From positions 96,001-160,000 of the IMG/VR virus record IMGVR_UViG_3300021185_003351: 64,000 nt of DNA; one strand, given 5' to 3'. The notes below the pieces were generated by a model. The model did not search any database, was not told where the DNA came from, and worked only from the letters and a program-made list of their open reading frames with translations. Source of the stretch: a virus. Shown here piece by piece: positions 9,598 to 33,192 of the stretch. Position 1 is the first letter of the stretch; each line of letters opens with the position of its first letter. A program made the position numbers and the translations under genes.

Positions 9598-9909
9598 ATG
9601 AGTTTTAATTTCTTAAATCCATCTGATGTAGATAGAAGCATGTTTTTTCGATGTGTAAAAATACTTTCAAAAAAAGATGGTATTGATCTTCATATATTAA
9701 ATGATGCGGTTATGAAAGAATATAACAGAACTATCAATGAATTTTTATCATATTTAATTTCAGTTGGAGAACAACTAGAAGAATATGAAAAATGTAGTGA
9801 GTTAATATTACAGCAAAAAAAATATAAAAAGTGGTTAACAGTTAATTTAGAAACAGTTAAATCGATTTCAAACTTATTAAAAGACTTAAAACATAAATAT
9901 GACAACTAA
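9598..9909 (+). CDS. Hypothetical protein with UVR-like EEYEKC helix
   Basis: EQLEEYEKCSELI; similar motif in ORF 52992. Confidence 0.5.
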   Translation: MSFNFLNPSDVDRSMFFRCVKILSKKDGIDLHILNDAVMKEYNRTINEFLSYLISVGEQLEEYEKCSELILQQKKYKKWLTVNLETVKSISNLLKDLKHKYDN

Positions 9910-10558
9910 AAAAAGTATTGAATTAGTAAAAGAAGGATTTGCAAATGGTGTAGCATCCGGAGGCCCATTAGATGATTATCAAAAAAATGATATGATTCAA
10001 AAAGCTGCAAAAGCGTATGGTGAGTTTTTAGATGCTTTAAAATGCGATTGGAGAAATGATCCTAATTCAAATGATACTCCTAGAAGAGTAGCAAAAGCAT
10101 ATGTAAATGATTTATGGGCTGGAAGATATAATGGAGCTCCTAATATTACAGCATTTCCATCTGATGGATATGATGGTATGGTATTTGAAGGTGGTATTCC
10201 ATTAACATCAATGTGTTCTCACCATCATCAAACTATTATGGGTAAAGTTCATGTAGCTTATATTCCAGGTAAAGACAGTAAAGTTATTGGATTATCAAAA
10301 TTAAATAGATTAGTAGAACATTTTGGTAGAAGAGGAGCAATACAAGAACAATTAACAGTTGCAATTCATAATTCAATTAATACTATTATTAATGATAATA
10401 ATGGTGTTGCTGTTATGATAGATGCAACTCATAATTGTGTTTCATGTAGAGGAGTTAAACATGGCGGAGCATCAATGAAAACAAGTAAGCTTACAGGCGC
10501 ATTTAAAAATGATCCTGCAACTAGAAATGAGTTTTATGAATTTATAAGAAGTTATTAA
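9899..10558 (+). CDS. folE: GTP cyclohydrolase I
   Basis: TPRRVAK, SMCSHH, GLSKLNR, IQEQLT, HNCVSCRG. Confidence 0.95.
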   Translation: MTTKKSIELVKEGFANGVASGGPLDDYQKNDMIQKAAKAYGEFLDALKCDWRNDPNSNDTPRRVAKAYVNDLWAGRYNGAPNITAFPSDGYDGMVFEGGIPLTSMCSHHHQTIMGKVHVAYIPGKDSKVIGLSKLNRLVEHFGRRGAIQEQLTVAIHNSINTIINDNNGVAVMIDATHNCVSCRGVKHGGASMKTSKLTGAFKNDPATRNEFYEFIRSY

Positions 10559-10713
10559 TGAATCAACCAAATGCAAAAAAACATCAAACAATAAGTTTTA
10601 TTAAAAGTTGTATTAGAATAATAGGTTATTTTTTTATACCATTTAGTTTAATAACAGCAACAATAATATTAGTAATAAGTGAAATTATAGGAATAATAGA
10701 AGAATTAGTATAA
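10558..10713 (+). CDS. Small membrane protein; not in ORF track
   Basis: 51 aa (MNQPNAKKHQTISFIKSCIRIIGYFFIPF...IIEELV), coupled by TAATG at both ends. Confidence 0.6.
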   Translation: MNQPNAKKHQTISFIKSCIRIIGYFFIPFSLITATIILVISEIIGIIEELV

Positions 10714-11180
10714 TGAGTAAATTTAAATCAACAAAAATATTTGACGGATTTAGTACAGTATTTCGTCAATTTGGAGCTATTGAAACACACTGCAGATTTT
10801 TACATGGATATGCAATTGAATTTAAAGTAACATTTGAAGGAGAATTAGATCACAGAAATTGGGTATGGGATTTCGGAGGAATGAAAAGGTCTAAAACAAA
10901 AATTGATGGAATGTCTGCAAAAGAATGGATGGATTATATGTTTGATCATACTACAATAATAGCAGAAGATGATCCATACCTAGAAACATTTTTAAAAATG
11001 CAAGATGATGGACTTATTCAATTAAGAGTTATGGAAGGACCGACTGGAGCAGAAAAGTTTGCAGAATACATATTTAATAAATTAAATGATTTTGTAAAAG
11101 AAGAAACTACAGATAGAGTAAAAATAGCTCGAGTAGAATTTTTTGAAAATAAAAAAAATACAGCTATATATGGAGAATAA
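10713..11180 (+). CDS. queD: 6-carboxy-5,6,7,8-tetrahydropterin synthase
   Basis: HCRFLHGY, WDFG, FDHT, C-terminal E...N; sits between folE and queE. Confidence 0.9.
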   Translation: MSKFKSTKIFDGFSTVFRQFGAIETHCRFLHGYAIEFKVTFEGELDHRNWVWDFGGMKRSKTKIDGMSAKEWMDYMFDHTTIIAEDDPYLETFLKMQDDGLIQLRVMEGPTGAEKFAEYIFNKLNDFVKEETTDRVKIARVEFFENKKNTAIYGE

Positions 11181-12033
11181 CCTAATATATGAATCTCCTA
11201 ATGGAGGCAAAACAGTATATCAACGAGAAATTGGATCTTCTAAAAGAAAGATACAAAGTAGATTAAAAAGAATAGAAGATTATAATAAAGTATTACCAGT
11301 TTTAGAAGTATATAGATGTGTACAATCAGAAGGTTCTAGATTTGGTAGACCAACTATTGCAGTTAGAACTACAGGCTGTACCCATAGATGTTATTTTGGA
11401 GAAGGCGGTTGGTGTGATTCTTGGTATACAAGCATTCACCCAGAAAAAGGTACATTTACTTTTAATGATATTATTAAGATATATGATGATAATCCCCATG
11501 TAAAGGAAATGATGTTAACAGGTGGTTCACCTACAATGCATCCTGCTTTAGTAAATGAAATAACACATTTTGCAAATGAAAGAAACATTTTGGTTACAAT
11601 TGAAACAGAAGGCTCTCACTTTCTTGAAACAGACTATCCTTTGGATCTTATTAGTCTTAGTCCTAAATTTAGTAACAGTGTGCCTGTACTTGGTGCTGTT
11701 ACACCTAACGGGGCTATCGCCGATGAGCGAATGATTAAAGTTCACAATAGACTTAGATTAAATAAGGAAGCTATTAGTAAAACAATTGCATATCATAAAG
11801 ATTATCATTTCAAGCCAGTATGGGATGGCACAAATGAAAATCTAGAAGAAATTGAGACATTTAGAGTTGAAATGGATATTCCAAAAAATAAAACATTTAT
11901 AATGCCAGCTGGTGATACTAGAGAAACATTAGTAAAAATGTATCCATTAGTATTTGAATTATGTGCTGAAAAAGGATATAATATGACAGGTAGAGACCAC
12001 ATTATAGCATATGACACAGAAAGAGGAGTGTAA
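11170..12033 (+). CDS. queE: 7-carboxy-7-deazaguanine synthase (radical SAM)
   Basis: VQSEG...G.PTIAVRTTGC, CxxxC(x7)C-D-S, LTGGSP, IETEG, SLSPK; ATG at 11170 preferred over TTG at 11143. Confidence 0.9.
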   Translation: MENNLIYESPNGGKTVYQREIGSSKRKIQSRLKRIEDYNKVLPVLEVYRCVQSEGSRFGRPTIAVRTTGCTHRCYFGEGGWCDSWYTSIHPEKGTFTFNDIIKIYDDNPHVKEMMLTGGSPTMHPALVNEITHFANERNILVTIETEGSHFLETDYPLDLISLSPKFSNSVPVLGAVTPNGAIADERMIKVHNRLRLNKEAISKTIAYHKDYHFKPVWDGTNENLEEIETFRVEMDIPKNKTFIMPAGDTRETLVKMYPLVFELCAEKGYNMTGRDHIIAYDTERGV

Positions 12034-12174: not shown

Positions 12175-12471
12175 ATGAAAATGAAACCAATTGGAGATCA
12201 AGTTTTAATAAAAGAACAAGAAAAAGCTGATAAAACAGAAAGTGGAATAATATTAGTAGATGGTATAGACGGAGAATTTATATATGCAGATGTTATATCT
12301 GTAGGTAATGGATTATTTACTCAAACTGGAAATAGAATACCAATGTCAGTCTCTCCGGGAGATACTGTTTTAATACATAAAAATAATACTGGTGCACAAA
12401 AGAAAGTAAAAATTGATGGTACGGAATATATATTAGTAAGAGAAATGGAAATATCCATGGTTTCAAACTAA
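12175..12471 (+). CDS. groES: Co-chaperonin GroES
   Basis: KPIGDQVLI, KTESGIIL, V.SVG.G, V.PGD.V. Confidence 0.92.
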   Translation: MKMKPIGDQVLIKEQEKADKTESGIILVDGIDGEFIYADVISVGNGLFTQTGNRIPMSVSPGDTVLIHKNNTGAQKKVKIDGTEYILVREMEISMVSN

Positions 12472-12472
12472 T

Positions 12473-13111
12473 ATGTTAAAAATAAAAAAAGATAAAAATG
12501 TTATAAAGTCTAAAATGCCAAAGGGGCAAGCAACTGTTGTAGCATTTATTTATTACATCCTAATAATGTCTTTATATTTTTTATTTACGTCATGTAAAAA
12601 AATAGACGAAAATGGATTTAAAACATATATTATCGATCAAGGAAGTCATTATTCAAATGGTAAACTAGATAAATTATATGGCAATGATAATAAAGAAAAT
12701 TCATGGCAATGGCAAGTTATTTTTGATAGCTCAGCTATATACGAAACGCAGAATCCATTAAATCAATTAGATGTTAATAAATTAATAGGATTTTCAGATT
12801 GCGGAAATCATCATTCAACATCATCTCATCGAATTGGATGGAGATATAATAACGGATTAGAATTATTATCATATAATCGCAATGATGGCAATTTTTTGTT
12901 TCAATCAATTAGTACGATTACTATTAATGACATTATAAATATTGAGATGTCATTCTCAAATGAAACCTATATAGTATGTATAGATGGAATTTGTGACACA
13001 ATGCCAAGATATTGTTCAAATTGGTCCGGTCGTAAGTTTGCACTTTGGCCATATTTTGGAGGAGACGAACCAGCTCCTCATGATATAACGATTAAAATAA
13101 AAAATATATAA
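12473..13111 (+). CDS. Putative lipoprotein with concanavalin-like beta-sandwich
   Basis: Hydrophobic stretch ending FTSC (lipobox); C-terminal LWPYFGG..PAPH. Confidence 0.45.
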   Translation: MLKIKKDKNVIKSKMPKGQATVVAFIYYILIMSLYFLFTSCKKIDENGFKTYIIDQGSHYSNGKLDKLYGNDNKENSWQWQVIFDSSAIYETQNPLNQLDVNKLIGFSDCGNHHSTSSHRIGWRYNNGLELLSYNRNDGNFLFQSISTITINDIINIEMSFSNETYIVCIDGICDTMPRYCSNWSGRKFALWPYFGGDEPAPHDITIKIKNI

Positions 13112-13773
13112 TGCCAGATAATAAAGACAAAAATCCTCCGAAAGGAAACATAAAATTTAATATTACATTATCAGATGAACAAAAATTAGCTAAAGCTGAG
13201 ATATTACACCATCCTTACAATTTTATTATAGGTAAGGCTGGAAGTGGAAAAACCTTATTAGCAGTACAGGTTGCATTGGATATGTTTTTTAAAAGAAGTG
13301 TTAATCAAATTATTATTACTAGACCAACTGTATCAAATGAAGATAATGGTTATTTACCTGGATCATTAAATGAAAAAATGGAACCTTGGTTAGTACCAAT
13401 TCGTTCTAATATGAGAAAAGTTTATAATAAACCAGCTATACTTGAAAAAATGGAAAATGATGAAAATATTGAGTTAGTATCGTTATCCCATTTTAGAGGC
13501 AGGACATTTGAAAATGCTTGTGTGATTATAGACGAGTTTCAAAATTTAACTAAACAACAACTAGGGATGGTATTAGGTAGATTAGGTAAAAACTCAACTA
13601 TGATATTAACAGGCGACCCACAACAAATAGATTTAAAATTTGGTAATGACTCAGCTATACATGATGTTCCTAAAGTAAAAGATTCAAAATTTGTTCATGC
13701 TGTTACTTTAAAGGATAATCATCGACATTCAGCACTAAACGAAGTATTGAGATTATTACAATCATATTCATAA
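13111..13773 (+). CDS. phoH: PhoH-family ATPase
   Basis: GKAGSGKT, ITRP, GYLPG, RGRTF, IDEFQN, GDPQQID. Confidence 0.93.
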   Translation: MPDNKDKNPPKGNIKFNITLSDEQKLAKAEILHHPYNFIIGKAGSGKTLLAVQVALDMFFKRSVNQIIITRPTVSNEDNGYLPGSLNEKMEPWLVPIRSNMRKVYNKPAILEKMENDENIELVSLSHFRGRTFENACVIIDEFQNLTKQQLGMVLGRLGKNSTMILTGDPQQIDLKFGNDSAIHDVPKVKDSKFVHAVTLKDNHRHSALNEVLRLLQSYS

Positions 13774-13775
13774 AC

Positions 13776-13804
13776 TTGGATATTACATAATTATTTCTTA
13801 TTAT
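13776..13804 (+). promoter_or_regulatory. TTGGAT-N17-TATTAT promoter
   Basis: Intergenic, 17-nt spacer. Confidence 0.6.
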
Positions 13805-13815
13805 ATAATAAAAAT

Positions 13816-14850
13816 ATGATTAGATATGGTTATGCATGTGTCAATCAGACACTAACAAGTAGACCCAAGAATGAAGGTGGTAGAGTTACTACTTCAAGGA
13901 CTGCACGTAAAGCTTCTTGGTATCCCGATAATTTACAGCTTATTTCAGATAAAGCATTAGACAATGCTAAAGATTTACTTACTTATCTGAAATGGAATGA
14001 CGACCATGGTATTACTTTATTTCGTGTAGGCTCCGAATTATTTCCATGGCATGATCAATATGAATTACATGATTTACCTGACTTTGAAGAAATTGCTTAT
14101 CACTTGCATGCAGCTGGAGAATTTGCTAGAGACAATGGACATAGACTAACTACTCATCCTGGACCGTTCCATGTATTAGGTTCTCCTAGGCAAGATGTTG
14201 TAGAAAAAAGTATTATTGGTCTAGAACGACACTCTGAAATGTTTGATATTATGGGTTATGAGCCGTCCTTTGAGAATAAGATTAATATACATGTTGCTGG
14301 CGCATATGGTGATCGTGAAGCTACTGCTAAGCGGTGGATCAAGACCTGGAGACGATTATCTGAGTCTTGTAGATCTAGATTAGTACTAGAGAATGATGAT
14401 AAGGCATCTATGTATAGTGTAAGGCATCTATACGAGCTTATACACCAAGAAATTGGTATTCCCATTACATTTGACTATTGGCATCATACCTTTTGTACAG
14501 GCGATTTATCTGAACGTGAGGCATTCTTTATGGCAAGATCTACTTGGGAGAAGTATGGTGTAACTCAATGTACTCATTATTCTGAGTCTAGACGAAACGA
14601 AAAAAAAGCTTTCTTGAATGAAGTATGTAGCAAGCATGGTATTTCGTGGGATGAAATTGATAGCTGGCCTACCTTTGCAAAGTTCAAGAAAGAATTCTCA
14701 AAGATAAAAGAGCCTGCCCATGCAGATTATATTGTGAATACTCCTAATACTTATAATGTTGATAATCTAGACATAGTAGTTGAAGCTAAGGCAAAAGAGT
14801 TAGCTATTTTACCGGTATTGGAAAAACAAAAAGAATTACTTATATTATAA
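13816..14850 (+). CDS. uvsE: UV-damage endonuclease
   Basis: GYAC, LFRVGS, THPG, INIH, LENDD, FDYWHH, HYSES, AHAD, EAKAKE. Confidence 0.93.
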   Translation: MIRYGYACVNQTLTSRPKNEGGRVTTSRTARKASWYPDNLQLISDKALDNAKDLLTYLKWNDDHGITLFRVGSELFPWHDQYELHDLPDFEEIAYHLHAAGEFARDNGHRLTTHPGPFHVLGSPRQDVVEKSIIGLERHSEMFDIMGYEPSFENKINIHVAGAYGDREATAKRWIKTWRRLSESCRSRLVLENDDKASMYSVRHLYELIHQEIGIPITFDYWHHTFCTGDLSEREAFFMARSTWEKYGVTQCTHYSESRRNEKKAFLNEVCSKHGISWDEIDSWPTFAKFKKEFSKIKEPAHADYIVNTPNTYNVDNLDIVVEAKAKELAILPVLEKQKELLIL

Positions 14851-15080: not shown

Positions 15081-17600
15081 ATGTATCAAAATATAGCATA
15101 TCATAAGAAAACTGGCACAATGCATGTATGGGATGACGAATTAGGTCATAAAACTTTTAAGTTTACTCCATATGGATATATTCCAGATACAAATGGAGAA
15201 TATGTATCACTAAATGGCACTAAATTATCAAAGACTCCAGGCAATCATAGAGATAATTCAGATGCATATGAATCTGATTTAAATGAAGAGGTTAGAACAT
15301 TAATAGACTTATATTATGAGTCTGATTTAGTATCCACTGGTCATTCCGACTTCTTTTTTGATATTGAAACAGCAAAAGATGCAGATGGATATTCTACTCC
15401 AGAAGATGTTAGAACCGAAATAACATCAATAGCATATTATGACAAAGTTGGCAAAGATAGGAGAGTATTAGTATTGGATAAAGCAAACAGATTATCTGAT
15501 GACATTATATACGGTGATAACTATACTGTTGAGGTATTTGATAATGAAGCAAATTTGCTAATTAAATTTATTAACTATTTTTCAGAAATACAACCTACTG
15601 TTATAACTGGCTGGAATACTGATGGGTATGATATTCCATATCTTATTAATAGAATTAAAAAAGTATTAGGTCCTAAGTCTGCCAATAAATTATCTCCAGC
15701 TGGAATTGTAGAATGGAATAAACATCGTGAAAGATATAAAATATTTGGAGTTTCTAGTTTAGATTATATTAAATTATATAAAAACTTCACATATACAGAA
15801 CTTCCTAATTATAGATTAGATACAGTAGGTAAAACAGAGTTAGGTAAAGGTAAAATTGAATATGATGGTGACTTAGATGATTTATTTGTTTCAGACATTA
15901 ACAAGTTCATAGAATATAATATGACTGATGTTGATCTTGTATATGAGTTGGATGAAAAATTACAATTAATCAACTTAGCAAGAACTATATGCCATAAAGG
16001 ACATGTTCCATATGAAGATGTTTATTACGCATCTAAATATCTTGATGGTGCAGCTATTGTAGATTTAAAAAGAAACGGATTAGTAGCTCCAAATAAACAA
16101 TTTAGATTTGTTGAAGATGAAGAGCAGAATAAATTAGCCGGTGCATATGTTATGCCTCCTATACCAGGCCTATATAAATGGATATACGATTTAGATTTAA
16201 CATCTCTATATCCATCCATCATAATGAGCCTTAATATATCTCCAGAAACTAAAATAGGTGTTATTCCAAATTGGAAACAAGAATCATTGCTAAGTAAAGA
16301 GCCTGTTAGTGTAGTATGTAACGGCCAGACTATTCCAGATATTAAACAATGGCTAATTGATAATAAATTTACTGTTGCAAGTAATGGAGTAGTATATGAT
16401 ACTAGAAGTAAAGGATTCTTACCAAAGATATTAGAAAAATGGTTTGATGAACGTGTTAAATTTAAAAATGAACGAGATAATCATGAAGTAGGAAGTGATA
16501 AGTATAAATTTTATGATGCAATGCAATTAACACAAAAAGTATTGTTAAATTCATTTTATGGAGTATTAGGATTAAAGACATTTAGATTTCATGATTTAGA
16601 TAACGCAGGAGCTATCACAGCAACTGGCCAAAGTGTTATTAAATTTTCTGCAAAAGTTATTAATGGGTACTATAAGAAAGAAGTTGGTAAAGATTATTTT
16701 ATTAATGCTAATGGCAATAAAGCAGAATTTTCATTCTATACAGATACAGATTCAACATTTGTATCTAGTTTACCTTTAATAGAAAAAAGATATCCTGGAT
16801 TTGATGAATCTGATGAAAAGTTTATGATTGAAAAAACAAATGAAATAGCATCTGAAATACAATCGCATGTAAATAAAATGTATGATCAATATGCAGTTCA
16901 TTTTCATAATACATTTGATCATAGATGGCAAATTAAACAAGAATATGTTGCTAAGTCTGGTCTGTGGATAGCAAAAAAGAGATATGCTCAGTGGGTAATA
17001 TTTAAAGAAGGTAAACCTACGGATAAAATGGATATAAAAGGATTAGACGTAGTCAGATCATCTTTCCCTACTGAATTTAAAACTATAATGAAAGAAACAT
17101 TATGGTATATACTCAAAGAAAAGTCAAAGAATGCCACAACTAACTTAATAATGGATTTCAAAGACAAAATACAAGATTCTCCAATATTGGATGTCATGAA
17201 GAATACAGGTGTTAAAAATATCACAAAGTATACTAAAGGAAGAAAAACATTATCTGGATATCCATTAGGAACCCCAGTACATGTTAAATCTTCAATAAAT
17301 TACAATGATATGCTTAAACATTTAGGTATAAATAAAAATGCAAAAAACTTTGCAGATATACAAAATGGAGATAAGATTAAATGGGCGTATCTTAAAACAA
17401 ATCAAATGGGGTTTGATACCATTGCACTTAGAGGTTATGAAGATCCAACCCAAATAACAGAATTTGTTGAAAAATTTATTGATAGAAATAAAATATTTGA
17501 CAGAGAGATACGTGGAAAGTTAGATGACTTTTACGCATCAATGAATTGGGATAAACTTCCTGAAAATAATAATATGAATAAGTTCTTTTCATTTGGATAA
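15081..17600 (+). CDS. Family B DNA polymerase
   Basis: Exonuclease FDIET, GWN...YDIPY, YNMTDV; polymerase DLTSLYPS, KVLLNSFYG, YTDTDS, KKRY, KGLD. Confidence 0.96.
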   Translation: MYQNIAYHKKTGTMHVWDDELGHKTFKFTPYGYIPDTNGEYVSLNGTKLSKTPGNHRDNSDAYESDLNEEVRTLIDLYYESDLVSTGHSDFFFDIETAKDADGYSTPEDVRTEITSIAYYDKVGKDRRVLVLDKANRLSDDIIYGDNYTVEVFDNEANLLIKFINYFSEIQPTVITGWNTDGYDIPYLINRIKKVLGPKSANKLSPAGIVEWNKHRERYKIFGVSSLDYIKLYKNFTYTELPNYRLDTVGKTELGKGKIEYDGDLDDLFVSDINKFIEYNMTDVDLVYELDEKLQLINLARTICHKGHVPYEDVYYASKYLDGAAIVDLKRNGLVAPNKQFRFVEDEEQNKLAGAYVMPPIPGLYKWIYDLDLTSLYPSIIMSLNISPETKIGVIPNWKQESLLSKEPVSVVCNGQTIPDIKQWLIDNKFTVASNGVVYDTRSKGFLPKILEKWFDERVKFKNERDNHEVGSDKYKFYDAMQLTQKVLLNSFYGVLGLKTFRFHDLDNAGAITATGQSVIKFSAKVINGYYKKEVGKDYFINANGNKAEFSFYTDTDSTFVSSLPLIEKRYPGFDESDEKFMIEKTNEIASEIQSHVNKMYDQYAVHFHNTFDHRWQIKQEYVAKSGLWIAKKRYAQWVIFKEGKPTDKMDIKGLDVVRSSFPTEFKTIMKETLWYILKEKSKNATTNLIMDFKDKIQDSPILDVMKNTGVKNITKYTKGRKTLSGYPLGTPVHVKSSINYNDMLKHLGINKNAKNFADIQNGDKIKWAYLKTNQMGFDTIALRGYEDPTQITEFVEKFIDRNKIFDREIRGKLDDFYASMNWDKLPENNNMNKFFSFG

Positions 17601-17621
17601 TTCAATAAAATTAATTATAAT
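17593..17621 (+). promoter_or_regulatory. TTGGAT-N17-TATAAT promoter
   Basis: Exact match at the head of the DNA-modification cassette. Confidence 0.65.
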
Positions 17622-17632
17622 AAAGAAAAAAT

Positions 17633-18085
17633 ATGTACGGTAAGCATCAATGGAAAGGTAGAGAAGTAGAAGGTCGTTATTCAGATCTTATGACTTTCTT
17701 CGTAAGAGACTTAAATCATAATATTAAAAAAACTTATGGTTTAGAAGTAGAAAATTTTAATGAATATCCTCATTATTATTTTACAATTGAATTCATGAAA
17801 AAGTCTATGAAAGACGAAAAATATTTGGAAAGTATTAGACGTATATTAGATGAATCAAATTGTGCTGTAACTATAGAAGCTACTAAAGACACTTTAGACA
17901 CAATTAAACCAGACTTATTTAATAGATGTCATATTATATATAGAATTTCAGATCCTTATTTAGAAATGCTTAAAGACACTGACACATTATCAATCGATGC
18001 AGGTTGGTATAGAGTTCATCAAGTAACTAAATGTAATATGATGGAAATTCAACCAGATAACTATAAATTTGACGAAGAAATATGA
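17633..18085 (+). CDS. Hypothetical protein, first gene of the deazaguanine cassette
   Basis: 150 aa; G.EVEG...TFFV and HYYF motifs; overlaps next gene (ATGA). Confidence 0.6.
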   Translation: MYGKHQWKGREVEGRYSDLMTFFVRDLNHNIKKTYGLEVENFNEYPHYYFTIEFMKKSMKDEKYLESIRRILDESNCAVTIEATKDTLDTIKPDLFNRCHIIYRISDPYLEMLKDTDTLSIDAGWYRVHQVTKCNMMEIQPDNYKFDEEI

Positions 18086-18429
18086 AATATTCAGTAGTTG
18101 TATCATTTAGCGTAGAAGGATTTCATTGTTGGCCAGAAGCTAAAGAAATTTTCCCGGAAGTTGGATTTTTATCTGACAGACATAGGCATATGTTTGGATT
18201 CCGTTGCTATGCAAAAGTAACACATACAGATAGAGATGAAGAATTTATTTTAATGCAAAGAAAATTAAAAAAACAACTAAGAACTAATTTTGGTGGTAAT
18301 ATATTAGAATTTGGTAGAATGAGTTGTGAAGATATAGGCGCTTGGATTTTAGAACAAAATAATAATTTGTATAAAGTAGAAGTTTGGGAAGATTGGGAAA
18401 ACGGAGCAATAGTAGAATTAGGTTATTAA
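18082..18429 (+). CDS. dpdL: QueD-paralogous T-fold protein, DpdL-like (candidate CDG decarboxylase)
   Basis: EGFHCW, LSDRHRHMF (LxxxHRHxF in place of QueD CxxxHGH), RD.EFI, SCE, EDxENGA. Confidence 0.65.
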   Translation: MKYSVVVSFSVEGFHCWPEAKEIFPEVGFLSDRHRHMFGFRCYAKVTHTDRDEEFILMQRKLKKQLRTNFGGNILEFGRMSCEDIGAWILEQNNNLYKVEVWEDWENGAIVELGY

Positions 18430-18430
18430 T

Positions 18431-19618
18431 ATGAAAAAAGTATTTTATTTTGGTTTAGAGCCTTTAAAGGCTAGATATACATATCAGTTATCTAAAGAAT
18501 GGATGCCGGCAACATTCCAGCCATATGTTGATGCAGGTAAAATTGAATATATTGATGTAGAAGGAGAATTTGATCCAGATCAACAAATTAAAATTGGAGC
18601 TGTATTAGATGCAGTAGGTAGAGGTAAGTTTGCTATGAGTCAATGTAGCAACTTTTTAGATATGATGAATCGAGATGAGGTTAGAGACGGAGATGTTATA
18701 TTTTTACAAGACTATTGGCATCCAGGTATCGGATCTATTTTGTATGCAGCTGATTTATATGGTATTAAATTGGAAATATATGCAATGTTACATGCTCAAA
18801 GTGTAGATGAATATGATTTTACATATCCTATGAGAACATGGATGCGAGGTTTTGAATTAGGTTTAGACAAAAGAATGACAGGTATATTTGTAGGATCTAG
18901 TATTCATAAAGAACAACTACGAGTAGCTGGATTTGAATCTCCAATACATGTTGTTTCATTACCAATTCATAAACAAGCTACATTAGACAAATTGCCTAGT
19001 TATAACTCCGGTGCAGAAAGAAAACCATTTGTTGTATACTCTAGCAGATTAGACAAAGAGAAAAATCCATTTTTCATGATGGAAGTAGCAACAGAATTTC
19101 TACAAGAATATACAGATTGGGAATGGCACATAACTACCTCAGGCAAAGAGTTTAGATCAATGTTACCAGGCGTTATTGATAAATTAAGATCATTAGCAAA
19201 ACAAGAGCCTAGATTTAAATTATTAGAAGGATTAACAAAAGAAGAATATTATACAGAGTTATCTACTTGCAGTATACAGTTTAATTCAGCTTTACAAGAT
19301 TATGTATCATGGACTGTAATTGAAGCTACTGCTTTTGGAGCAGATATTGTATATCCTAATTTTAGATCATTTCCAGAATTTATTGACAGTAAAAGAATGT
19401 ATAAACCATTTAATGTACAATCTGCATTAGATACATTTAGTGATGTAATGCTGTTTCCTAATAGACACAATGAAATAGTAGATATATCTGATCTAGGTAG
19501 ACAAATGGAAGGATACATTGTAGCAAATGGTATTAATCAAGAAATTAATGTTTGGCATGAAGCCGAATATTGTAAAATTTTATTAAATAAAAAAGAGGAA
19601 AAACATGAAAATAGATAA
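18431..19618 (+). CDS. GT-B fold glycosyltransferase (putative DNA-base glycosyltransferase)
   Basis: SSRLDKEKNP, L.KEEYY, QDYVSWTVIEA..FG...YP...SFPE; embedded between the dpdL-like and dpdA-like genes. Confidence 0.75.
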   Translation: MKKVFYFGLEPLKARYTYQLSKEWMPATFQPYVDAGKIEYIDVEGEFDPDQQIKIGAVLDAVGRGKFAMSQCSNFLDMMNRDEVRDGDVIFLQDYWHPGIGSILYAADLYGIKLEIYAMLHAQSVDEYDFTYPMRTWMRGFELGLDKRMTGIFVGSSIHKEQLRVAGFESPIHVVSLPIHKQATLDKLPSYNSGAERKPFVVYSSRLDKEKNPFFMMEVATEFLQEYTDWEWHITTSGKEFRSMLPGVIDKLRSLAKQEPRFKLLEGLTKEEYYTELSTCSIQFNSALQDYVSWTVIEATAFGADIVYPNFRSFPEFIDSKRMYKPFNVQSALDTFSDVMLFPNRHNEIVDISDLGRQMEGYIVANGINQEINVWHEAEYCKILLNKKEEKHENR

Positions 19619-19784
19619 ACAAGGTTTAGAAGAAATTAGAAGTACTATTGAAACTCCCTTTAAAGCTTTAGCAGAACAGCTAAGTGATAAAGGATGTTTA
19701 GATAAACAATCTGCAGAAATAGTAACATTTATATTTTCGAAAATTGAAACTCTCGGAGATTCATCATGGGAAGTAATTGATTAA
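19605..19784 (+). CDS. Small hypothetical protein; not in ORF track
   Basis: 59 aa (MKIDKQGLEEIRSTIETPFKALAEQL...WEVID); overlaps the GT end and is TAATG-coupled to dpdA. Confidence 0.55.
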   Translation: MKIDKQGLEEIRSTIETPFKALAEQLSDKGCLDKQSAEIVTFIFSKIETLGDSSWEVID

Positions 19785-21034
19785 TGGATAAAAATTTTAT
19801 ATATTATCCATCGTTATCAGCTGGTAGTATGGTGTCTGCATTCAAAAAGAATACAAAATTTGAGGATGGAACTACAACAAGATTCTTTTCAAAAGAGTAT
19901 CCTGCAGAATGGAGACATCCATATTTCTTAATCACTGCTGGACATCATTTCAAAAAGATGGATTTTCGTGATCAGTTAGGTTTAGATGATGAGGTATTAG
20001 TATTCGGAGATTCAGGCGGATTCCAAATAGCAACAGGAGCTTTAAAGTGGGACGGTACTATTCGTGAAAGAATATTTGAATGGTTAGAACATAATTCAGA
20101 TGTAGCAGCAAATTTAGATATTCCACCAAGAGCAAAATATGAAAATAGATTTGCCGAATCCATGGATATTAGTTTTGATAATTTTAAATATTTTGAATCT
20201 AAACAAACTGGAAAAACTGATTTCTTAAATGTTATACAAGGAACATATACAGAAGAATATGAAGAATGGTATCATAAGTTTAAGGATTTTGCATTTAATG
20301 GTTGGTGTATCGGAGGCCCTAAGAAATTAGTAGATTTCATGTATGTTATTGCTTTAATGTTAAAGGAACGAGAATTTGAAAAGAATCATGTAAAGTATAT
20401 ACATTTACTAGGAATATCAAAAATATCAGACTTTTTTATATTAGCAACATTACAAAAGTTAATTAACAAATTAACTGATAACAGAGTATTATTCTCAACA
20501 GATTCTAGTTCACCAGGACAATATCCAGTATTTGGAACATATTTACATTCTGGGAATTATAAAACTCAAACATTTACAGAATTATACTTTCCAAAAAATA
20601 ATGAATATAGAAGAAAATCTCATGCTAATAGATCTAATAAAACAGTAGCCATTGACACTACTAAACACGTGCCATGTAGTTTAGGCTGCCCTGCTTGTAA
20701 TGATTTTACATATGATTATTTAGGAGGCCAGACAGCAACTGGGTTAGATAGATATAGCCAAGAAGGTATGCCTAGAATGGTTATACATAATACTCATTTA
20801 TATGTCGACATTGCAAAAGATGTAAGCAAACTAGTAAATAATCATGTTGAATTGTTAGAAACAGCAATTCCAAAACCATTATACGATGTTATATTATCAT
20901 TACACGATATGTTTGCCGATCCAGACAATGCAATGAGAGTATATGCGACTTATAAAAAAACATACAAAAAGTTTGGTGGTGATAGTATATCAACTACTGA
21001 CGCAAATCAATTCAATAAATTCTTTAAATTTTAA
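19784..21034 (+). CDS. dpdA: TGT-fold 7-deazaguanine transglycosylase (DpdA-like)
   Basis: DSGGFQ, LDIPP, VIQG, IGG, HLLG, TDSSS, Zn site CSLGCPAC...HN. Confidence 0.85.
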   Translation: MDKNFIYYPSLSAGSMVSAFKKNTKFEDGTTTRFFSKEYPAEWRHPYFLITAGHHFKKMDFRDQLGLDDEVLVFGDSGGFQIATGALKWDGTIRERIFEWLEHNSDVAANLDIPPRAKYENRFAESMDISFDNFKYFESKQTGKTDFLNVIQGTYTEEYEEWYHKFKDFAFNGWCIGGPKKLVDFMYVIALMLKEREFEKNHVKYIHLLGISKISDFFILATLQKLINKLTDNRVLFSTDSSSPGQYPVFGTYLHSGNYKTQTFTELYFPKNNEYRRKSHANRSNKTVAIDTTKHVPCSLGCPACNDFTYDYLGGQTATGLDRYSQEGMPRMVIHNTHLYVDIAKDVSKLVNNHVELLETAIPKPLYDVILSLHDMFADPDNAMRVYATYKKTYKKFGGDSISTTDANQFNKFFKF

Positions 21035-21046
21035 AAATAAAAGCAA

Positions 21047-21754
21047 ATGGAAAAAAGTAAATTACAATCGTTTATTAACAGATATTATCTAGCAGGAAAT
21101 TGCGAAGCTGTAACTGTTAAAGCAAATGGTCAGTCTGTTAATTGTGAATTAATAGATGTTGATCAAACAGTAGTCGGAAAAATAAAATGGAAAACAGATC
21201 CATTTATGTCTGGCGAATTAGGTATTAATCATACAGGTGGATTAACAAAAATGTTATCCGCAGTAGGTGAAAATATCGATATCAATGTACAAGAGTCTGC
21301 AGGTAAGAATTATGCTATGAAGATCAAAGAAGGAAGTACCACAATGACTTTCATGTTAGCTGATACTTCTGTTATACCAGCAGTTCCTGCAATTAACGCA
21401 GAACCAGAATATAATGTTACAATTGATATTGATGAATTATTTGTTAATAAATTTATAAAAGCAAAAAATGCATTACCAGACGCAAAGAATTTTGCAGTAC
21501 AAGTACAAAACGGTAAAATAAAGTTTATTATTAATTATACAACTATTAATTCAGACAATGTTACATTTGAAATAGATGGTGGTACAGAAGCAATGGAACC
21601 AATTTGTTTCTCTGCAGATAAACTAAAAGAAGTATTAACTGCAAATAAAGGAGATAAAGGTACAATGCATTTTTCATCTAAAGGATTAGCTAGAATAGAT
21701 TTTACAGGTCCTGACTTTGATTCAAATTATTGGTTAGTTCAATTACAAAATTAA
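21047..21754 (+). CDS. DNA polymerase sliding clamp (gp45-like)
   Basis: 235 aa two-domain beta-rich protein ending YWLVQLQN; upstream of clamp-loader genes. Confidence 0.7.
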   Translation: MEKSKLQSFINRYYLAGNCEAVTVKANGQSVNCELIDVDQTVVGKIKWKTDPFMSGELGINHTGGLTKMLSAVGENIDINVQESAGKNYAMKIKEGSTTMTFMLADTSVIPAVPAINAEPEYNVTIDIDELFVNKFIKAKNALPDAKNFAVQVQNGKIKFIINYTTINSDNVTFEIDGGTEAMEPICFSADKLKEVLTANKGDKGTMHFSSKGLARIDFTGPDFDSNYWLVQLQN

Positions 21755-26859: not shown

Positions 26860-28350
26860 ATGGAGTTACCAAAGTTAAAAAAAATAGACTCAAACAAACA
26901 AAAAAAGAAAAAGATATTATTACTAGCTGATGATTTAAGATTACCATCAGGCATAGGAACAATATCAAAAGAAATTGTGTTGAACACAGTACGCCAATAT
27001 GATTGGGTACAAATTGGAGCAGCAATGAATCATCCAGATGCTGGTAAAATGTTCGACGTTTCAAAAGACGTAGCAAAAGAATCTGGAATAGAAGATGCAG
27101 TTGTTAAAATTATTCCATCAAATGGATATGGTGATAGAAACTTATTATTTGCTGTATTACATCAAGAGAAACCAGATGCTATATTTCATTTCACAGATCC
27201 TAGATATTGGGAATGGTTATATGCTATTGAACATGAAATAAAAACAACATTTAATATTCCAATCATATATTATTCAATTTGGGACGATCTACCATATCCA
27301 ATGTGGAATGCGCCCTTTTATGCGAGCTGTGACCTAATAATGGGAATTTCTAAGCAATCTGATAATATACATCGAGAAGTGTTGTTACAGAACGATTATG
27401 GGGTGTATGACTTTGATGCAGAAGAAAATAAAGAAGATCCTGAATTAGAGTGGGATGAAGTTGTAACAGGATATGTTCCACACGGATTAAATCACAACGC
27501 TTACAAGACATTATTAGAGTCTGATGAGTTATATGAAAGATTCTATACTGATATAAAAGTGAAAAATGATGTCGACTTTGTTGTATTTTGGAATAATAGG
27601 AATATTAGAAGAAAACAGCCAGGCGATGTTGTACTAGCTTTCCAGCATTTCAGAAACATGTTACCAAAAGATAAAAAAGATCGAGTAGCTTTATTAATGC
27701 ATACTCAACCGTCTGATTCAAACGGTACAGATATAAGAGCTGTTTGGAAAAACATAGCACCAGAATGTAAAGTTATATTTTCTGAAAAGAAATTAACATT
27801 ACAAGAATTAAATGCAATGTATAATATTTCAGATGTTGTATTAAATATTGCTTCAAACGAAGGATGGGGGTTAAGTAGCACAGAAGCATTATTATCAGGT
27901 ACTCCAATTGTTAATAATGTAACTGGAGGGTTACAAGATCAATGTAGATTTGAAGATGAAAATGGAGAATGGATTACATTTGACGGTACATTCTCGACAA
28001 ATCATAAAGGAAGATATAAAAAACATGGAAAGTGGGTAAGACCAGTATTTCCTTCAAATAGATCATGCCAAGGATCGCCAGTCACTCCTTATATATTTGA
28101 CGATCGTGCACAATTCGAGGATGTAGGAGATGCATTATTATATTGGTGGAATATGCCAAAAGAACAACGAGAAGAATGTGGAGAAGCTGGAAGAGAGTTT
28201 TGTTTAAATCATGGATTAACAGCAAAACAAATGGGTGACAAAATGATAGAAATAATGGATTTCTTATTTAAATATCCAAAAAAATCTAGGCCTAAATATA
28301 CATTAAGAAAAGTAACAAATAAACAATATAAAGAAATGGGAATAGTATGA
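26860..28350 (+). CDS. GT-B (GT4-like) glycosyltransferase
   Basis: SGIGT, VPHG, NRNIRRKQ, EGWGLSSTEA...GTP. Confidence 0.85.
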   Translation: MELPKLKKIDSNKQKKKKILLLADDLRLPSGIGTISKEIVLNTVRQYDWVQIGAAMNHPDAGKMFDVSKDVAKESGIEDAVVKIIPSNGYGDRNLLFAVLHQEKPDAIFHFTDPRYWEWLYAIEHEIKTTFNIPIIYYSIWDDLPYPMWNAPFYASCDLIMGISKQSDNIHREVLLQNDYGVYDFDAEENKEDPELEWDEVVTGYVPHGLNHNAYKTLLESDELYERFYTDIKVKNDVDFVVFWNNRNIRRKQPGDVVLAFQHFRNMLPKDKKDRVALLMHTQPSDSNGTDIRAVWKNIAPECKVIFSEKKLTLQELNAMYNISDVVLNIASNEGWGLSSTEALLSGTPIVNNVTGGLQDQCRFEDENGEWITFDGTFSTNHKGRYKKHGKWVRPVFPSNRSCQGSPVTPYIFDDRAQFEDVGDALLYWWNMPKEQREECGEAGREFCLNHGLTAKQMGDKMIEIMDFLFKYPKKSRPKYTLRKVTNKQYKEMGIV

Positions 28351-29636
28351 GAAAATGTGTAATATCAAGTCCATTAGCAACACAATCGGGATATGGACAC
28401 CATGCAAGAGAAGTTATAGAAAATATAATTGAACAACGAGGAAAAGAATGGAATATTAAATTGTTATCAATGCCATGGGGCAATACACCATTAACATTTC
28501 CAATATCAAACGAAATGCGAACTAGAGTAGTTCCATTACCATTAACAGAACAACCAGATATATGGATACAAATAACAATCCCAAATGAATTTCAACCGGT
28601 TGGAAAATTTAATATCGGAGTAACTGCAGTAACCGAAGGCGATATATGTTCAAAAGAATGGATTGATTCTATTAATAAAATGCAAGTTATCATAGTTCCA
28701 TCTGAATTTACTAAATCAGTATTAACAAAAACTGCAGAAAAACATAATATTGCAATTTCGACAGAAATACATGTTATATCAGAATATTTTAATAAAGATA
28801 TATACAATAAAAATAATAGAGCTGAATCAATTGATTTGAGTGAAGTACATGAATCATTTTGTTATTTGTTTGTAGGACATTGGCTTCAGGGATCATTAGG
28901 AGAAGATAGAAAAAATATAACTGGATTACTTCACAATTTTTTAGAAACATTTAAAAACAAAGAAAAAACTCCAGGATTAATATTAAAAACTAGTTCTGCA
29001 ACATACTCTGTTACTGACAGAAGTAAAATGGAACAATATATTAATTCAATTCGTGACTTATTTCCTAAAACTGCTAAACTTCCAAATATATATTTATTAC
29101 ATGGAGATTTATCTGACAATGAAATGAATTCATTATATAATCATTCCAAAGTTAAAGCAATGGTTTCATATACTAAAGGAGAAGGATTTGGAAGACCTTT
29201 ATTAGAATTTGCATCTACAGGAAAACCTATTATAGCACCACACTATTCAGGCCAAGCAGATTTCTTAAAGAAAGAGCATATAGTTGCATTAGCAGGAGGA
29301 TTAACAGAAGTACATCCATCGGCTAGAAATCAATGGATTATTGAAGGATCTAAATGGTTTACTCCCGATTATGCATATTCAAAAAAAGCATTAAAAGAAG
29401 TACATAAACATTACAGCAAATTTATTCCTGGAGCTAGAGAGCAAAAGAAATTTGTTACAGAAAATTTTACGAAAATTGCAATTGCTCCTAGTTATACAAA
29501 GTTAATAGAATTAATTGAAAGTAGAGTAGTAGAAGGTCCTAGTATGCAGCAATTAAAATTGCCACAGCTTAATAAACCAAATCTTAAAACAGTTGAACTT
29601 CCTAAGTTAAAATTACCTAAACTAAATAAAGTATGA
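28347..29636 (+). CDS. GT-B (GT4-like) glycosyltransferase
   Basis: SGYG, RKN, GEGFGRPLLE...GKP; LPKL-repeat tail. Confidence 0.85.
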   Translation: MRKCVISSPLATQSGYGHHAREVIENIIEQRGKEWNIKLLSMPWGNTPLTFPISNEMRTRVVPLPLTEQPDIWIQITIPNEFQPVGKFNIGVTAVTEGDICSKEWIDSINKMQVIIVPSEFTKSVLTKTAEKHNIAISTEIHVISEYFNKDIYNKNNRAESIDLSEVHESFCYLFVGHWLQGSLGEDRKNITGLLHNFLETFKNKEKTPGLILKTSSATYSVTDRSKMEQYINSIRDLFPKTAKLPNIYLLHGDLSDNEMNSLYNHSKVKAMVSYTKGEGFGRPLLEFASTGKPIIAPHYSGQADFLKKEHIVALAGGLTEVHPSARNQWIIEGSKWFTPDYAYSKKALKEVHKHYSKFIPGAREQKKFVTENFTKIAIAPSYTKLIELIESRVVEGPSMQQLKLPQLNKPNLKTVELPKLKLPKLNKV

Positions 29637-30265
29637 AAATAGGATATTTCATAACAGCCTGTAATGAATATGAAGAGTTAAAAAAACTTTTAATATTGTT
29701 ACGAACTAATATAGACAAAAATGACTGTATTGGTGTTTTATTAGATGAAAAAAACGTGACAGATGAAGTTGATTCATTATGCAATCAATTTTTAGTTCCA
29801 AATAATGAGTCTTTTCGGGTAATATACAGTAACTTAGACAATGACTTTGCATCATTTAAAAACTTAGGATATCATTTATTTGATGATTGTGATTGGATTT
29901 TTAATATAGATGCTGATGAATTACCATCTTCAATTTTAATACAAAATATTAAACAAGTTATAAATTTAAATCCAGAAACAGAATTAATATATGTTCCAAG
30001 AATAAATACAGTTGAAGGATTGACACAAGATCATATTAATAAATGGAGATGGCAAGTAAACGATGAAGGATGGGTGAATTGGCCAGATTACCAAGGCAGA
30101 ATATATAAACGATCGCCTATGATAGAATGGAAAGGTAAAGTGCATGAGCGAATAGAAGGAATGAAAAAATATTCACATCTTCCAGCTAAAGAAGAATTTG
30201 CATTTCACCATCCTAAAACAATTGAACGACAAGAGCGTCAAAATAAATTTTATGAAAGTATATAA
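29633..30265 (+). CDS. GT-A (GT2-like) glycosyltransferase
   Basis: ITACNE, WIFNIDADE, WPDYQ.R, VHE. Confidence 0.8.
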   Translation: MKIGYFITACNEYEELKKLLILLRTNIDKNDCIGVLLDEKNVTDEVDSLCNQFLVPNNESFRVIYSNLDNDFASFKNLGYHLFDDCDWIFNIDADELPSSILIQNIKQVINLNPETELIYVPRINTVEGLTQDHINKWRWQVNDEGWVNWPDYQGRIYKRSPMIEWKGKVHERIEGMKKYSHLPAKEEFAFHHPKTIERQERQNKFYESI

Positions 30266-30268
30266 AAA

Positions 30269-31042
30269 ATGAGTGTTACAGTAATATTAAATGGATATAA
30301 GCGTGGTAATCAATTAAATGAACAGTTAGAAGCATTACATAATCAAACTATACAACCAAATGAAATATTATTATGGTATAACAATCCAGGAGATGATTCA
30401 CTAATTAATTATGATGTTATGAGTTCTATACCTACTGCATTATGTAATTATAATTTTGGAGTATGGGCTAGATTTGCATTTGCATTTAACGCACAATCTA
30501 AATATGTTTGTATATTTGATGATGATACAATTCCTGGAAAAAAATGGTTAGAAAATTGTTTAGACACTATGAAGAAAAATGAGGGATTGTTAGGAACAGT
30601 TGGATTATTATATTTAAATCCATTACCACCAGAACAATCATCATATTATGAACATTATCTAAGATTTGGATGGGTTCCTAATGGCAATAATGAAGAAACA
30701 GTTCAAGTAGATTTAGTGGGGCATAGTTGGTTTTTCAAAAAAGAATGGTTGAGTCATATGTGGAGAGAAATACCAGATCCAAAATATAATACATGCGGAG
30801 AAGATATGCATTTTAGTTATATGTTACAAAAATATGCTAATATACCAACATATGTTCCTCCACACCCAATTAATGATAAAGAATTATGGGGAAGTTTAAA
30901 AGGAGCCGAATATGGAGGAGATCAAAATTCAATGTGGGAAACTAATCAATTAAGCAAAGATGGAATACCATTCAAAAACTTAATGAATGAATATTTCCAT
31001 ATTCAACGAAAAAAAGGATGGAAGTTAGTTAATGAAAAATAA
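30269..31042 (+). CDS. GT-A glycosyltransferase
   Basis: IFDDD, GED motifs. Confidence 0.75.
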   Translation: MSVTVILNGYKRGNQLNEQLEALHNQTIQPNEILLWYNNPGDDSLINYDVMSSIPTALCNYNFGVWARFAFAFNAQSKYVCIFDDDTIPGKKWLENCLDTMKKNEGLLGTVGLLYLNPLPPEQSSYYEHYLRFGWVPNGNNEETVQVDLVGHSWFFKKEWLSHMWREIPDPKYNTCGEDMHFSYMLQKYANIPTYVPPHPINDKELWGSLKGAEYGGDQNSMWETNQLSKDGIPFKNLMNEYFHIQRKKGWKLVNEK

Positions 31043-32797: not shown

Positions 32798-33192
32798 TAG
32801 AATGTAATAAAGAATATTGGGAGTTTGTTAGAACTCTTCGAAATGATGATCAAGTACAAAACGGATTTATAGAGACTATAGAAATAACTTCAGAAATGCA
32901 AAATGCATATATGAATAAGTATAGTGACTGTTATAGAATTGCATTAATAGAAATACATACAGGAGACTCATTACATTTAGTGCCAGCTGGGTTTGTTGGA
33001 GTTATTGATGATGATATACGAGTATGCACCGTTCCAGAATTTCAAGGAATGGGTATTGGAAAGTTTATGATTAACGAATGTATGAAATTATGGCCCAATG
33101 CTTTTGCTAAAGTTAAAATTAATAATGAAGCTTCAAAAAAATTATTTAAAGCATGCGGATTTAAAGAAAAATTTATAATATTTGAACAATGA
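32788..33192 (+). CDS. GNAT N-acetyltransferase
   Basis: FQGMGIG, N.AS.KLF...GF. Confidence 0.8.
   Translation: MELIECNKEYWEFVRTLRNDDQVQNGFIETIEITSEMQNAYMNKYSDCYRIALIEIHTGDSLHLVPAGFVGVIDDDIRVCTVPEFQGMGIGKFMINECMKLWPNAFAKVKINNEASKKLFKACGFKEKFIIFEQ

Follow-up and report, generated by a model that had tools for sequence, protein, structure and literature searches.

We report on a 64,000-nucleotide (nt) stretch of viral DNA, here called the window, which comprises bases 96001-160000 of a 172,973-bp IMG/VR virus record whose completeness estimate is complete. Between its PolB gene and a clamp-like gene the window holds a cassette of five open reading frames (ORFs), all on the + strand. These encode a 150-amino-acid (aa) QueE-like protein (ORF1), a homologue of DpdL (ORF2), a glycosyltransferase (GT) of GT4 type (ORF3), a 59-aa ORF (ORF4) and a TGT/DpdA-like transglycosylase (ORF5). 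On the best explanation, this operon forms the half of a 7-deazaguanine DNA-modification pathway, one without QueC, that tailors and inserts the base. The GT and the QueE-like protein form a conserved, previously undescribed addition to phage 7-deazaguanine systems. We consider the chances even that the GT puts a sugar on a base derived from 7-carboxy-7-deazaguanine (CDG) or 7-deazaguanine (DG), with the phage DNA carrying a sugar-bearing deazapurine. The identities of the genes, their conserved catalytic residues and their conserved linkage are direct observations of this study, and they are described below before the chemistry is discussed.

Conservation of the glycosyltransferase beside DpdL

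In a protein search of GenBank phages with the GT, every phage returned, one distant group aside, had DpdL too, either adjoining the GT or no more than 3 kb from it. Homologues with 22-42% identity to the GT lie inside DpdL-type clusters of phages PA5oct, ACP17, BUCT-ZZ01, Phosso, BUDD/X1 and BCSR5, and of many marine contigs. The order of genes is PolB ... TGT-GT-DpdL ... QueE in the PA5oct group, QueD-FolE-x-TGT-GT-DpdL-QueE in ACP17, and QueE-XGPRT-x-QueD-FolE-x-TGT-DpdL-GT in BUCT-ZZ01. It is PolB-clamp-glycosylase-DpdL-GT-x-FolE ... QueE in Phosso, FolE-x-x-143aa-GT-TGT-DpdL-QueE in BUDD, and DpdL ... 155aa-GT-TGT-x-QueE in BCSR5. Loci from IMG/VR with 35-60% GT identity, many of them marine, again show QueD-QueE-FolE-DpdL-GT arrangements. 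The adjacency of the GT to DpdL and to the QueE-like gene thus survives full reshuffling of the surrounding genes, and the hosts spanned by the GT-DpdL linkage include cyanobacteria, Pseudomonas, Xanthomonas, Burkholderia, Acidovorax, Sinorhizobium and marine hosts. The original prediction for this DNA had named loss of the GT from beside dpdA and dpdL in relatives as grounds for its refutation; the survey gave the opposite outcome, with the GT conserved in such clusters of many unrelated phages.

The linkage was also counted in 44 loci that were fetched with the GT alignment alone and that extend at least 1.5 kb on both sides of the GT. A 7-deazaguanine gene was present in all 44; within 1.5 kb of the GT, DpdL was found in 32, a long TGT in 31 and the QueE-like gene in 31, although these loci come mostly from one marine lineage and hence are not independent. 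For this reason the weight lies with the variety of gene orders and host groups, at least 10 of them, rather than with the counts. Where DpdL was missing at the cassette (e.g. L139 and L142), it was present elsewhere in the same genome.

The GT is not a universal companion of DpdL. No GT match (E <=1e-3) was obtained in about half of the DpdL-bearing GenBank lineages, namely the phiST group, D479, Roos, MA9V-3, Bakedbeans, Ahp1 and RHph_I1_18. The type of TGT differs as well: the GT-less phiST and D479 have the short DpdA3, whereas the GT-bearing named phages have a long TGT.

Two of the clusters hold further annotated genes. In Synechococcus phage BUCT-ZZ01, an annotated xanthine-guanine phosphoribosyltransferase (XGPRT; L005:2093-2554) is located between QueE and QueD, which hints that some such phages route the deazapurine through the nucleotide pool. 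In Xanthomonas phage BUDD, a gene annotated as a member of the PAPS reductase family (L222:5380-5874) lies inside the cluster beside FolE and could be a remnant of a QueC-like ATP-pyrophosphatase.

The five genes of the cassette

As the original prediction described, the five ORFs between PolB and the clamp-like gene overlap or abut. Successive ORFs overlap by 4, 14 or 1 nt or stand 1 nt apart. ORF3 (18431-19618, + strand) encodes the GT, a protein of 395 aa. Its AlphaFold 2 (AF2) model has a pLDDT of 95.4 and a pTM of 0.93. Its score against Pfam Glycos_transf_1 (19-20 bits) lies under the gathering score of 26-27, and many of its close relatives have a precomputed PF00534 match. The top Foldseek hits in the PDB were MshA, BshA, glycogen synthase, SPS, LmbT, SenB and PimA (E 1e-13 to 1e-10), and GlgM is a further close neighbour. 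The best solved neighbours of ORF3 are retaining GT4 enzymes with roles in glycosylating small molecules or in glycan assembly. Among 48 sequences of the GT family, R206 and K211 are invariant and E298 is nearly so. The segment SSRLDKEKNP of ORF3 lines up with GRLDHNKNP of PglA/WlaC, which is the diphosphate-binding GRLxxxK motif, and its LEA with the LEAMA of GlgM. E298 represents the first Glu of EX7E; conservation does not extend to the second. The N-terminal domain, which would bind the acceptor, has an invariant set (D94, D126, D129, F130, W137 and E142) rich in Asp, Glu and aromatic residues, and the whole protein is acidic (pI 5.2). With a confident model and conserved donor-binding Arg, Lys and Glu residues, ORF3 looks like a catalytically competent GT4-type enzyme.

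The original prediction cited the T4 glucosyltransferases AGT and BGT as GT-B enzymes that glycosylate DNA bases. Its assignment of ORF3 to the GT-B glycosyltransferases, with their two-Rossmann fold, stands, but a likeness to AGT/BGT is not supported; the protein is of GT4 type, and its nearest solved relatives act on small molecules. Neither AGT nor BGT was among the best 50 PDB rows from Foldseek, all of which were cellular GTs and mostly GT4 enzymes with small-molecule acceptors, and a shared origin is possible. In the viral library, a cyanophage protein named DNA alpha-GT ranked only 45th for ORF3. No Pfam match ties ORF3 to the family of the queuosine mannosyl- and galactosyl-transferases.

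The GT family is very large, forming 901 clusters at 50% identity (E <=1e-3). More than 580 stretches of viral contigs encode a relative, and many of these contigs are from seawater. A scan of prokaryote genomes with the motifs of the family found four short contigs of metagenome-assembled genomes only, probably phage DNA. Longer homologues of the GT were checked for Rosetta-stone fusions; P0240 proved to contain an intein and P0246 a tail that was uninformative, and none was fused to DpdL, TGT or the QueE-like protein. The intein (Pfam Intein_splicing, E 9e-6) splits P0240, a family member of 726 aa; inteins usually occupy conserved sites of important phage genes. Three related marine contigs (L134, L136 and L137) have two GT paralogues in each deazaguanine cluster, one between QueE and FolE and one after DpdL. 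Xanthomonas phage PhiXhv-15 (L224:5654-8888) encodes a distant GT relative (~25% identity) beside GlmS and a BshB-like deacetylase with no DpdL nearby, and this relative probably belongs to a different sugar system.

ORF2 (18082-18429, + strand) encodes a DpdL homologue of 115 aa, probably a QueD-paralogous T-fold protein; DpdL is a proposed CDG decarboxylase. In tblastn searches, ORF2 showed 38% identity to CGPG_00067 of phiST over 97% of the query (E 2e-12) and 30% identity to the homologue of ACP17. It also matches PHROG 17812 (E 4e-21). Its motif LSDRHRHMF conforms to the LxxxHRHxF pattern, which replaces the CxxxHGH of QueD. The same pattern has been reported to define DpdL, for which decarboxylation of CDG to 7-deazaguanine was predicted (Nucleic Acids Res 2023, PMC10516641), and the account of DpdL and its HRH motif in the original prediction agrees with that paper. 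In an alignment of 20 DpdL sequences from GT-bearing and GT-less phages, conservation was seen at H15, H34, H36, E54, C82, E83, E103 and D104. The invariant positions are the three His, two Glu and the S-C-E triplet, together with L30; R35 and F38 are nearly invariant. The family profile aligns over its full length, though weakly (E 0.014), to the PTPS homologue PH0634 of P. horikoshii (2dj6). The single ORF2 sequence had no Pfam PTPS match and only a weak hhalign match to the window's own QueD. Its genomic company is FolE, QueD, QueE and a DpdA-like enzyme, with QueC absent. We identify ORF2 as DpdL on homology, motif and the weak fold match.

ORF1 (17633-18085, + strand) had no match in Pfam, PHROGs, tblastn searches of phages, the ESM Atlas, Foldseek searches of the PDB or a PDB profile search. 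Its AF2 model has a pLDDT of 93. In an exhaustive structure comparison with 48,161 PDB chains, the best three were QueE of B. subtilis, B. multivorans and E. coli. In addition, the invariant N-terminal sequence GxExEG followed by T-x-F-x-R (FFVR) in ORF1 is in register with the QGEG...FIR of QueE, both in the window's own QueE and in a QueE alignment. This segment of QueE contacts the pterin/deazapurine substrate. The Arg of the ORF1 motif is lost in the most distant members of the family; G9, E11, E13, G14, E82, Y144 and D147 are invariant among 18 sequences. ORF1 has no CxxxCxxC, and the 18-sequence alignment contains no conserved Cys, which excludes radical SAM chemistry. From the fold match and the short motif we consider it slightly favoured that ORF1 is a QueE derivative without the iron-sulfur cluster.

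Homologues of ORF1 lie directly upstream of the GT in the divergent loci L151, L153, L154 and L157 and adjoin it in L145. They likewise precede the GT directly in Burkholderia phage BCSR5 (155 aa; hhalign probability 95%) and Xanthomonas phage BUDD (143 aa; hhalign probability 74%). Judging by this recurrent adjacency, ORF1 is a conserved partner of the GT. A complex prediction for the GT with the ORF1 protein gave a score of 0.00, which we counted neither way. The 159-aa gene between dpdL and dpdA3 in phiST was considered as an ORF1 homologue and was rejected, as the two are not homologous. In locus L156, a divergent QueD-QueE-FolE-DpdL-x-GT cluster, the gene between DpdL and the GT (L156:9057-9998) encodes 313 aa and has the radical SAM motif CPNQCPFC; it is not QueE, nor is it an ORF1 homologue.

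ORF4 (19605-19784, + strand) is lineage-specific, with no family match in Pfam or PHROGs. It is kept as an ORF in 39 closely related loci and is absent in those more distant relatives whose GT and TGT genes abut. The original prediction had offered both ORF1 and ORF4 as candidates for missing steps. ORF1 looks QueE-like rather than wholly unknown; ORF4, being confined to close relatives, is a poor candidate.

ORF5 (19784-21034, + strand) encodes a long protein of 416 aa. Its match to Pfam TGT (PF01702) has an E value of 1.2e-5 and, at 25.0 bits, falls below the cut-off of 26.3 and covers a partial region only. When a profile of eight family members was compared with the PDB, 41 of the 42 matches were TGTs, but all were weak (best E 0.09). 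The motifs named in the original prediction, LxxxHRHxF in ORF2 and DSGGFQ, HLLG and DSSS in ORF5, are all present. In ORF5 they keep the order of the TGT catalytic residues, with D76 in DSGGFQ and D240 in DSSS, and DSGGFQ itself lines up with LTDSGGFQ in human QTRT1. Across eight sequences, down to 20% identity, D76, S77, G78, G79, Q81, D112, H207, L209, G210 and D240 are invariant, and both catalytic Asp residues are among them. Judging by these motifs, ORF5 is a divergent TGT/DpdA-like enzyme. The zinc site of the original prediction fared less well: the CSLGCPAC cluster is there, but among relatives only the closest (82% identity) retains it and those at 53% identity or less have lost it, and so it is not a feature of the family.

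Homologues of ORF5 are the DpdA candidates of PA5oct, ACP17 and BUCT-ZZ01. Comparison with phiST DpdA3 (CGPG_00065; 259 aa vs 416 aa) gave an hhalign probability of 10%, and jackhmmer from phiST DpdA3 found only the D479 homologue among all loci. Membership of ORF5 in the DpdA3 subfamily was therefore rejected for want of close homology to CGPG_00065, and its membership in a DNA-acting DpdA subfamily lacks sequence support. The Pseudomonas phage Peetri has a 456-aa homologue of the long TGT (L229:6857-8227) with no visible deazaguanine synthesis gene within 7 kb. FolE, QueD, QueE, DpdL and the GT are present in two near-complete, divergent genomes (L154, 101 kb with terminal repeats; L156, 94% complete), yet four probes of these genomes (PF01702, the long-TGT profile, PF20314, phiST DpdA3) detected no transglycosylase. 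A weak transglycosylase candidate was seen in their relative L155 (L155:11808-12659), and we treat the result for L154 and L156 as divergence rather than absence.

Precursor supply and genomic setting

The genes for precursor supply are found 6 kb upstream of the cassette, also on the + strand. FolE (GTP cyclohydrolase I; 9899-10558), the first step to CDG, matches Pfam PF01227 (E 6.6e-47), and QueD (CPH4 synthase, PTPS family; 10713-11180) matches PF01242 (E 9e-16), both above the cut-off. They are followed by a QueE-like radical SAM enzyme as the CDG synthase (11143-12033), with a weak match to Pfam Radical_SAM (E 4.8e-6). A jackhmmer search seeded with this protein retrieved the annotated QueE genes of ACP17, PA5oct and phiST. 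QueC was found nowhere in the genome. Since FolE, QueD and QueE are present and QueC is absent, the phage-encoded pathway ends at CDG, on which a host QueC could in principle act. These findings bear out the 7-deazaguanine cassette of the original prediction, with its DpdL homologue and its TGT/DpdA-like enzyme, and show that QueC is not part of it. No hydroxymethylase of the ThyA family was found in the genome, so hydroxymethylcytosine (hmC) or hydroxymethyluracil (hmU), the usual acceptors, are unlikely here; a role of the GT in an hmC or hmU pathway was rejected on this ground.

The cassette is flanked upstream by PolB (15081-17600; Pfam DNA_pol_B, E 1e-41) across a 32-nt gap and downstream by the clamp-like gene (21047-21754; PHROG 223, E 1e-8) across a 12-nt gap, and a dUTPase and the clamp loader follow. 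A private promoter had been proposed for it. A sigma-70-like string is present at 17594-17621 on the + strand (TGGATA-16-TATAAT, 10 of 12 matches), but it is doubtful, as such sites are no commoner than in shuffled sequence (21 found vs 26.5 expected). Together with the narrow gaps on both sides, this leaves a promoter of the cassette's own unsupported.

The G+C content of the window is ~30% and its replication genes are of T4 type. In a PolB comparison, the closest cultured relative was Microcystis phage Mel-JY01 at only 44.6% identity, which places the source virus in an uncultured, T4-like lineage of marine myoviruses. A nucleotide search of GenBank phages with the cassette gave no match. 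Between the CDG genes and PolB (12175-14850), the window encodes a Cpn10 co-chaperonin, PhoH and a UvdE UV-damage endonuclease. A distinct glycan locus (26860-36527) begins 6 kb downstream of the cassette and reaches to 16 kb. It contains two Glycos_transf_1-type GTs, a GT2, a UDP-GlcNAc 2-epimerase (GlcNAc, N-acetylglucosamine), a fragment of a DegT-type aminotransferase and a HAD-nucleotidyltransferase fusion. This locus could be the source of an unusual nucleoside diphosphate (NDP) sugar for the cassette.

The proposed acceptor and fate of a sugar

The cassette resembles several known systems in part. Like the window, phiST with its DpdL/DpdA3 system has FolE, QueD and QueE, no QueC, a DpdL with LxxxHRHxF and a distant TGT paralogue by its replication genes. 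Unlike the window, it has neither a GT nor a 150-aa QueE-like gene, its DpdA3 has 259 aa, and its product is a measured 7-deazaguanine in DNA (dDG). So far, measurements of dDG are confined to phiST and two of its close relatives, none of which has the GT, and the paper that described DpdL does not mention a glycosyltransferase, the string 'glycosyl' having 0 occurrences (PMC10516641). The DNA of PA5oct resists enzymes with G in their sites, from which a modified G was inferred, the base itself not having been identified (PMC12191111). Our literature searches found no description of a glycosylated deazaguanine in DNA. The alpha- and beta-glucosyltransferases of T4, which act on 5-hydroxymethylcytosine (5hmC), are similar in being phage GT-B enzymes encoded with a base-replacement pathway, which makes sugar on a non-canonical DNA base an obvious parallel. 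They differ in acting on a hydroxymethyl group, which the present acceptor lacks; a hydroxymethylase is also missing from this genome.

A second partial precedent is HuiG of the huimycin pathway, which is described as transferring GlcNAc from UDP-GlcNAc to a free 7-deazapurine base (bioRxiv 10.64898/2026.04.15.718813). Here, as in the dapiramicin pathway, a glycosyltransferase is encoded in a FolE/QueD/QueE-type cluster, and related clusters bear the annotation PF13439 for the N-terminal domain of GT4; we liken HuiG to ORF3 by description only. In contrast to the cassette, the HuiG pathway makes an actinomycete secondary metabolite from O-methylated preQ0, and neither a TGT/DpdA nor a nucleic acid is involved. 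Mannosyl- and galactosyl-queuosine of eukaryotic tRNA also carry a sugar on a base derived from 7-deazaguanine, and one of the transferases is a GT-B enzyme. However, that modification is on RNA, and its sugar sits on the cyclopentenediol, which the present pathway cannot make.

From these observations we infer the following scheme, including its chemistry, its sequence of events, and the use of a sugar and its acceptor. FolE, QueD and QueE would yield CDG, and DpdL, as a QueD paralogue with a zinc site, would decarboxylate it to 7-deazaguanine. The GT4-type enzyme would take an NDP-sugar as donor and a CDG- or DG-derived base as acceptor, probably helped by the 150-aa protein, which keeps the substrate-binding N-terminal motif of QueE and not its iron-sulfur cluster. 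The long TGT/DpdA-like enzyme would swap guanine in the phage DNA for the deazapurine, and the end state would be DNA with a sugar-bearing 7-deazaguanine instead of plain dDG. By a slight margin we favour the free base, glycosylated ahead of its insertion, over DNA as the acceptor. Our reasons are the small-molecule type of the solved GTs, the acidic GT, the QueE-like partner, the distinct long TGT and the huimycin precedent. Conversely, two points count against a free-base acceptor: the N1/N2 edge of the base is what TGT enzymes recognize, and in the T4 precedent the sugar is added on DNA. Candidates for the acceptor atom are N2, the carboxylate of CDG and C7. The fullest form of the scheme holds that this phage and others with the same module, among them the cultured PA5oct, ACP17, BUCT-ZZ01, BUDD and BCSR5, have glycosylated 7-deazaguanine in their virion DNA, made through a free-base GT4 enzyme and the QueE-like protein, followed by a long DpdA adapted to the bulkier base. 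We put it forward tentatively, at somewhat less than an even chance.

Several points weigh against our favoured explanation. 7-Deazaguanine has no hydroxyl group, and we know of no DNA in which a sugar is carried on N2, a ring nitrogen, C7 or the carboxylate of CDG. The structural match of ORF1 to QueE has Z scores of 5.6-6.1 over 122-127 of 150 residues, and a Z below 8 can reflect a common arrangement; the sequence match comprises 23 columns (hhalign E 7.5e-4, probability 25%). The pairing of the GT with the long TGT is not absolute, since L132, L133 and L144 combine the GT with a 310-aa DSGAFT-type DpdA, which also speaks against a free-base acceptor. The shared lineage of most counted loci has been noted above. 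The searched literature contains no nucleoside analysis of any GT-bearing phage. Finally, the decarboxylase activity of DpdL is only predicted, and expression of dpdL with dpdA from phiST or ACP17 in E. coli gave no dDG (PMC10516641).

It is also conceivable that the GT acts on a deazapurine intermediate and that the sugar does not enter the DNA, the final base being plain dDG as in phiST. The sugar could then be a transient handle for decarboxylation or for hand-over to the TGT, or it could sequester surplus free deazapurine. An acidic GT that resembles small-molecule GT4 enzymes fits such a role, as does a QueE-like partner, which suggests binding of a free base. Furthermore, dDG is the sole base measured for a DpdL system, and a sugar on N2 would block the N1/N2 edge that the TGT reads. 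Yet phiST and D479 lack any GT, so a GT is not needed for dDG, and an enzyme that looks essential, is widely conserved and in one case bears an intein exceeds what would be expected of a detoxifier. We regard a transient sugar as unlikely, though it deserves real weight.

Less probable still, in our judgement, is an acceptor unrelated to deazaguanine, such as another DNA base, a phage or host protein or an envelope glycan, with the position of the GT reflecting co-regulation only. The acceptors of GT4 enzymes are very diverse, the separate glycan locus 6-16 kb downstream has more GTs and sugar-nucleotide enzymes, and the distant PhiXhv-15 relative keeps company with GlmS and a deacetylase with no DpdL nearby. 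Against such an acceptor stand the adjacency to DpdL and the QueE-like gene, which outlasts reshuffling in unrelated phages, and the lack of an hmC or hmU pathway in the genome. The target could even be RNA rather than DNA, given that the TGT superfamily is ancestrally one of tRNA enzymes and that sequence does not place ORF5 in a DNA-acting subfamily. We hold a tRNA target to be very improbable: the cassette stands among replication genes, homologous clusters occur in phages with G-modified DNA (dDG in phiST, restriction resistance in PA5oct), and tRNA queuosine needs preQ1, which is beyond this gene set.

If the GT does place a sugar on the deazapurine in DNA, there are several implications. 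Omission of the GT could matter in the failed reconstitution of dpdL and dpdA in E. coli, where the GT of ACP17 lies between the two cloned genes; since the GT-less phiST pair also failed, the omission is not established as the cause. The module is present in several cultured phages, and the prediction is thus testable with existing material. To our knowledge, the sugar-decorated bases of DNA are all pyrimidines, namely glucosyl- and arabinosyl-hmC, base J and related forms of hmU. A glycosylated deazapurine would be a new chemical class of DNA hypermodification and the first purine in any DNA to carry a sugar. It would have consequences for the recognition of such phages by restriction enzymes, DNA-glycosylase defences and END nucleases. 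Given the very large size of the GT family, with its 901 clusters and hundreds of viral contigs, many from seawater, such a modification would be common in the ocean.

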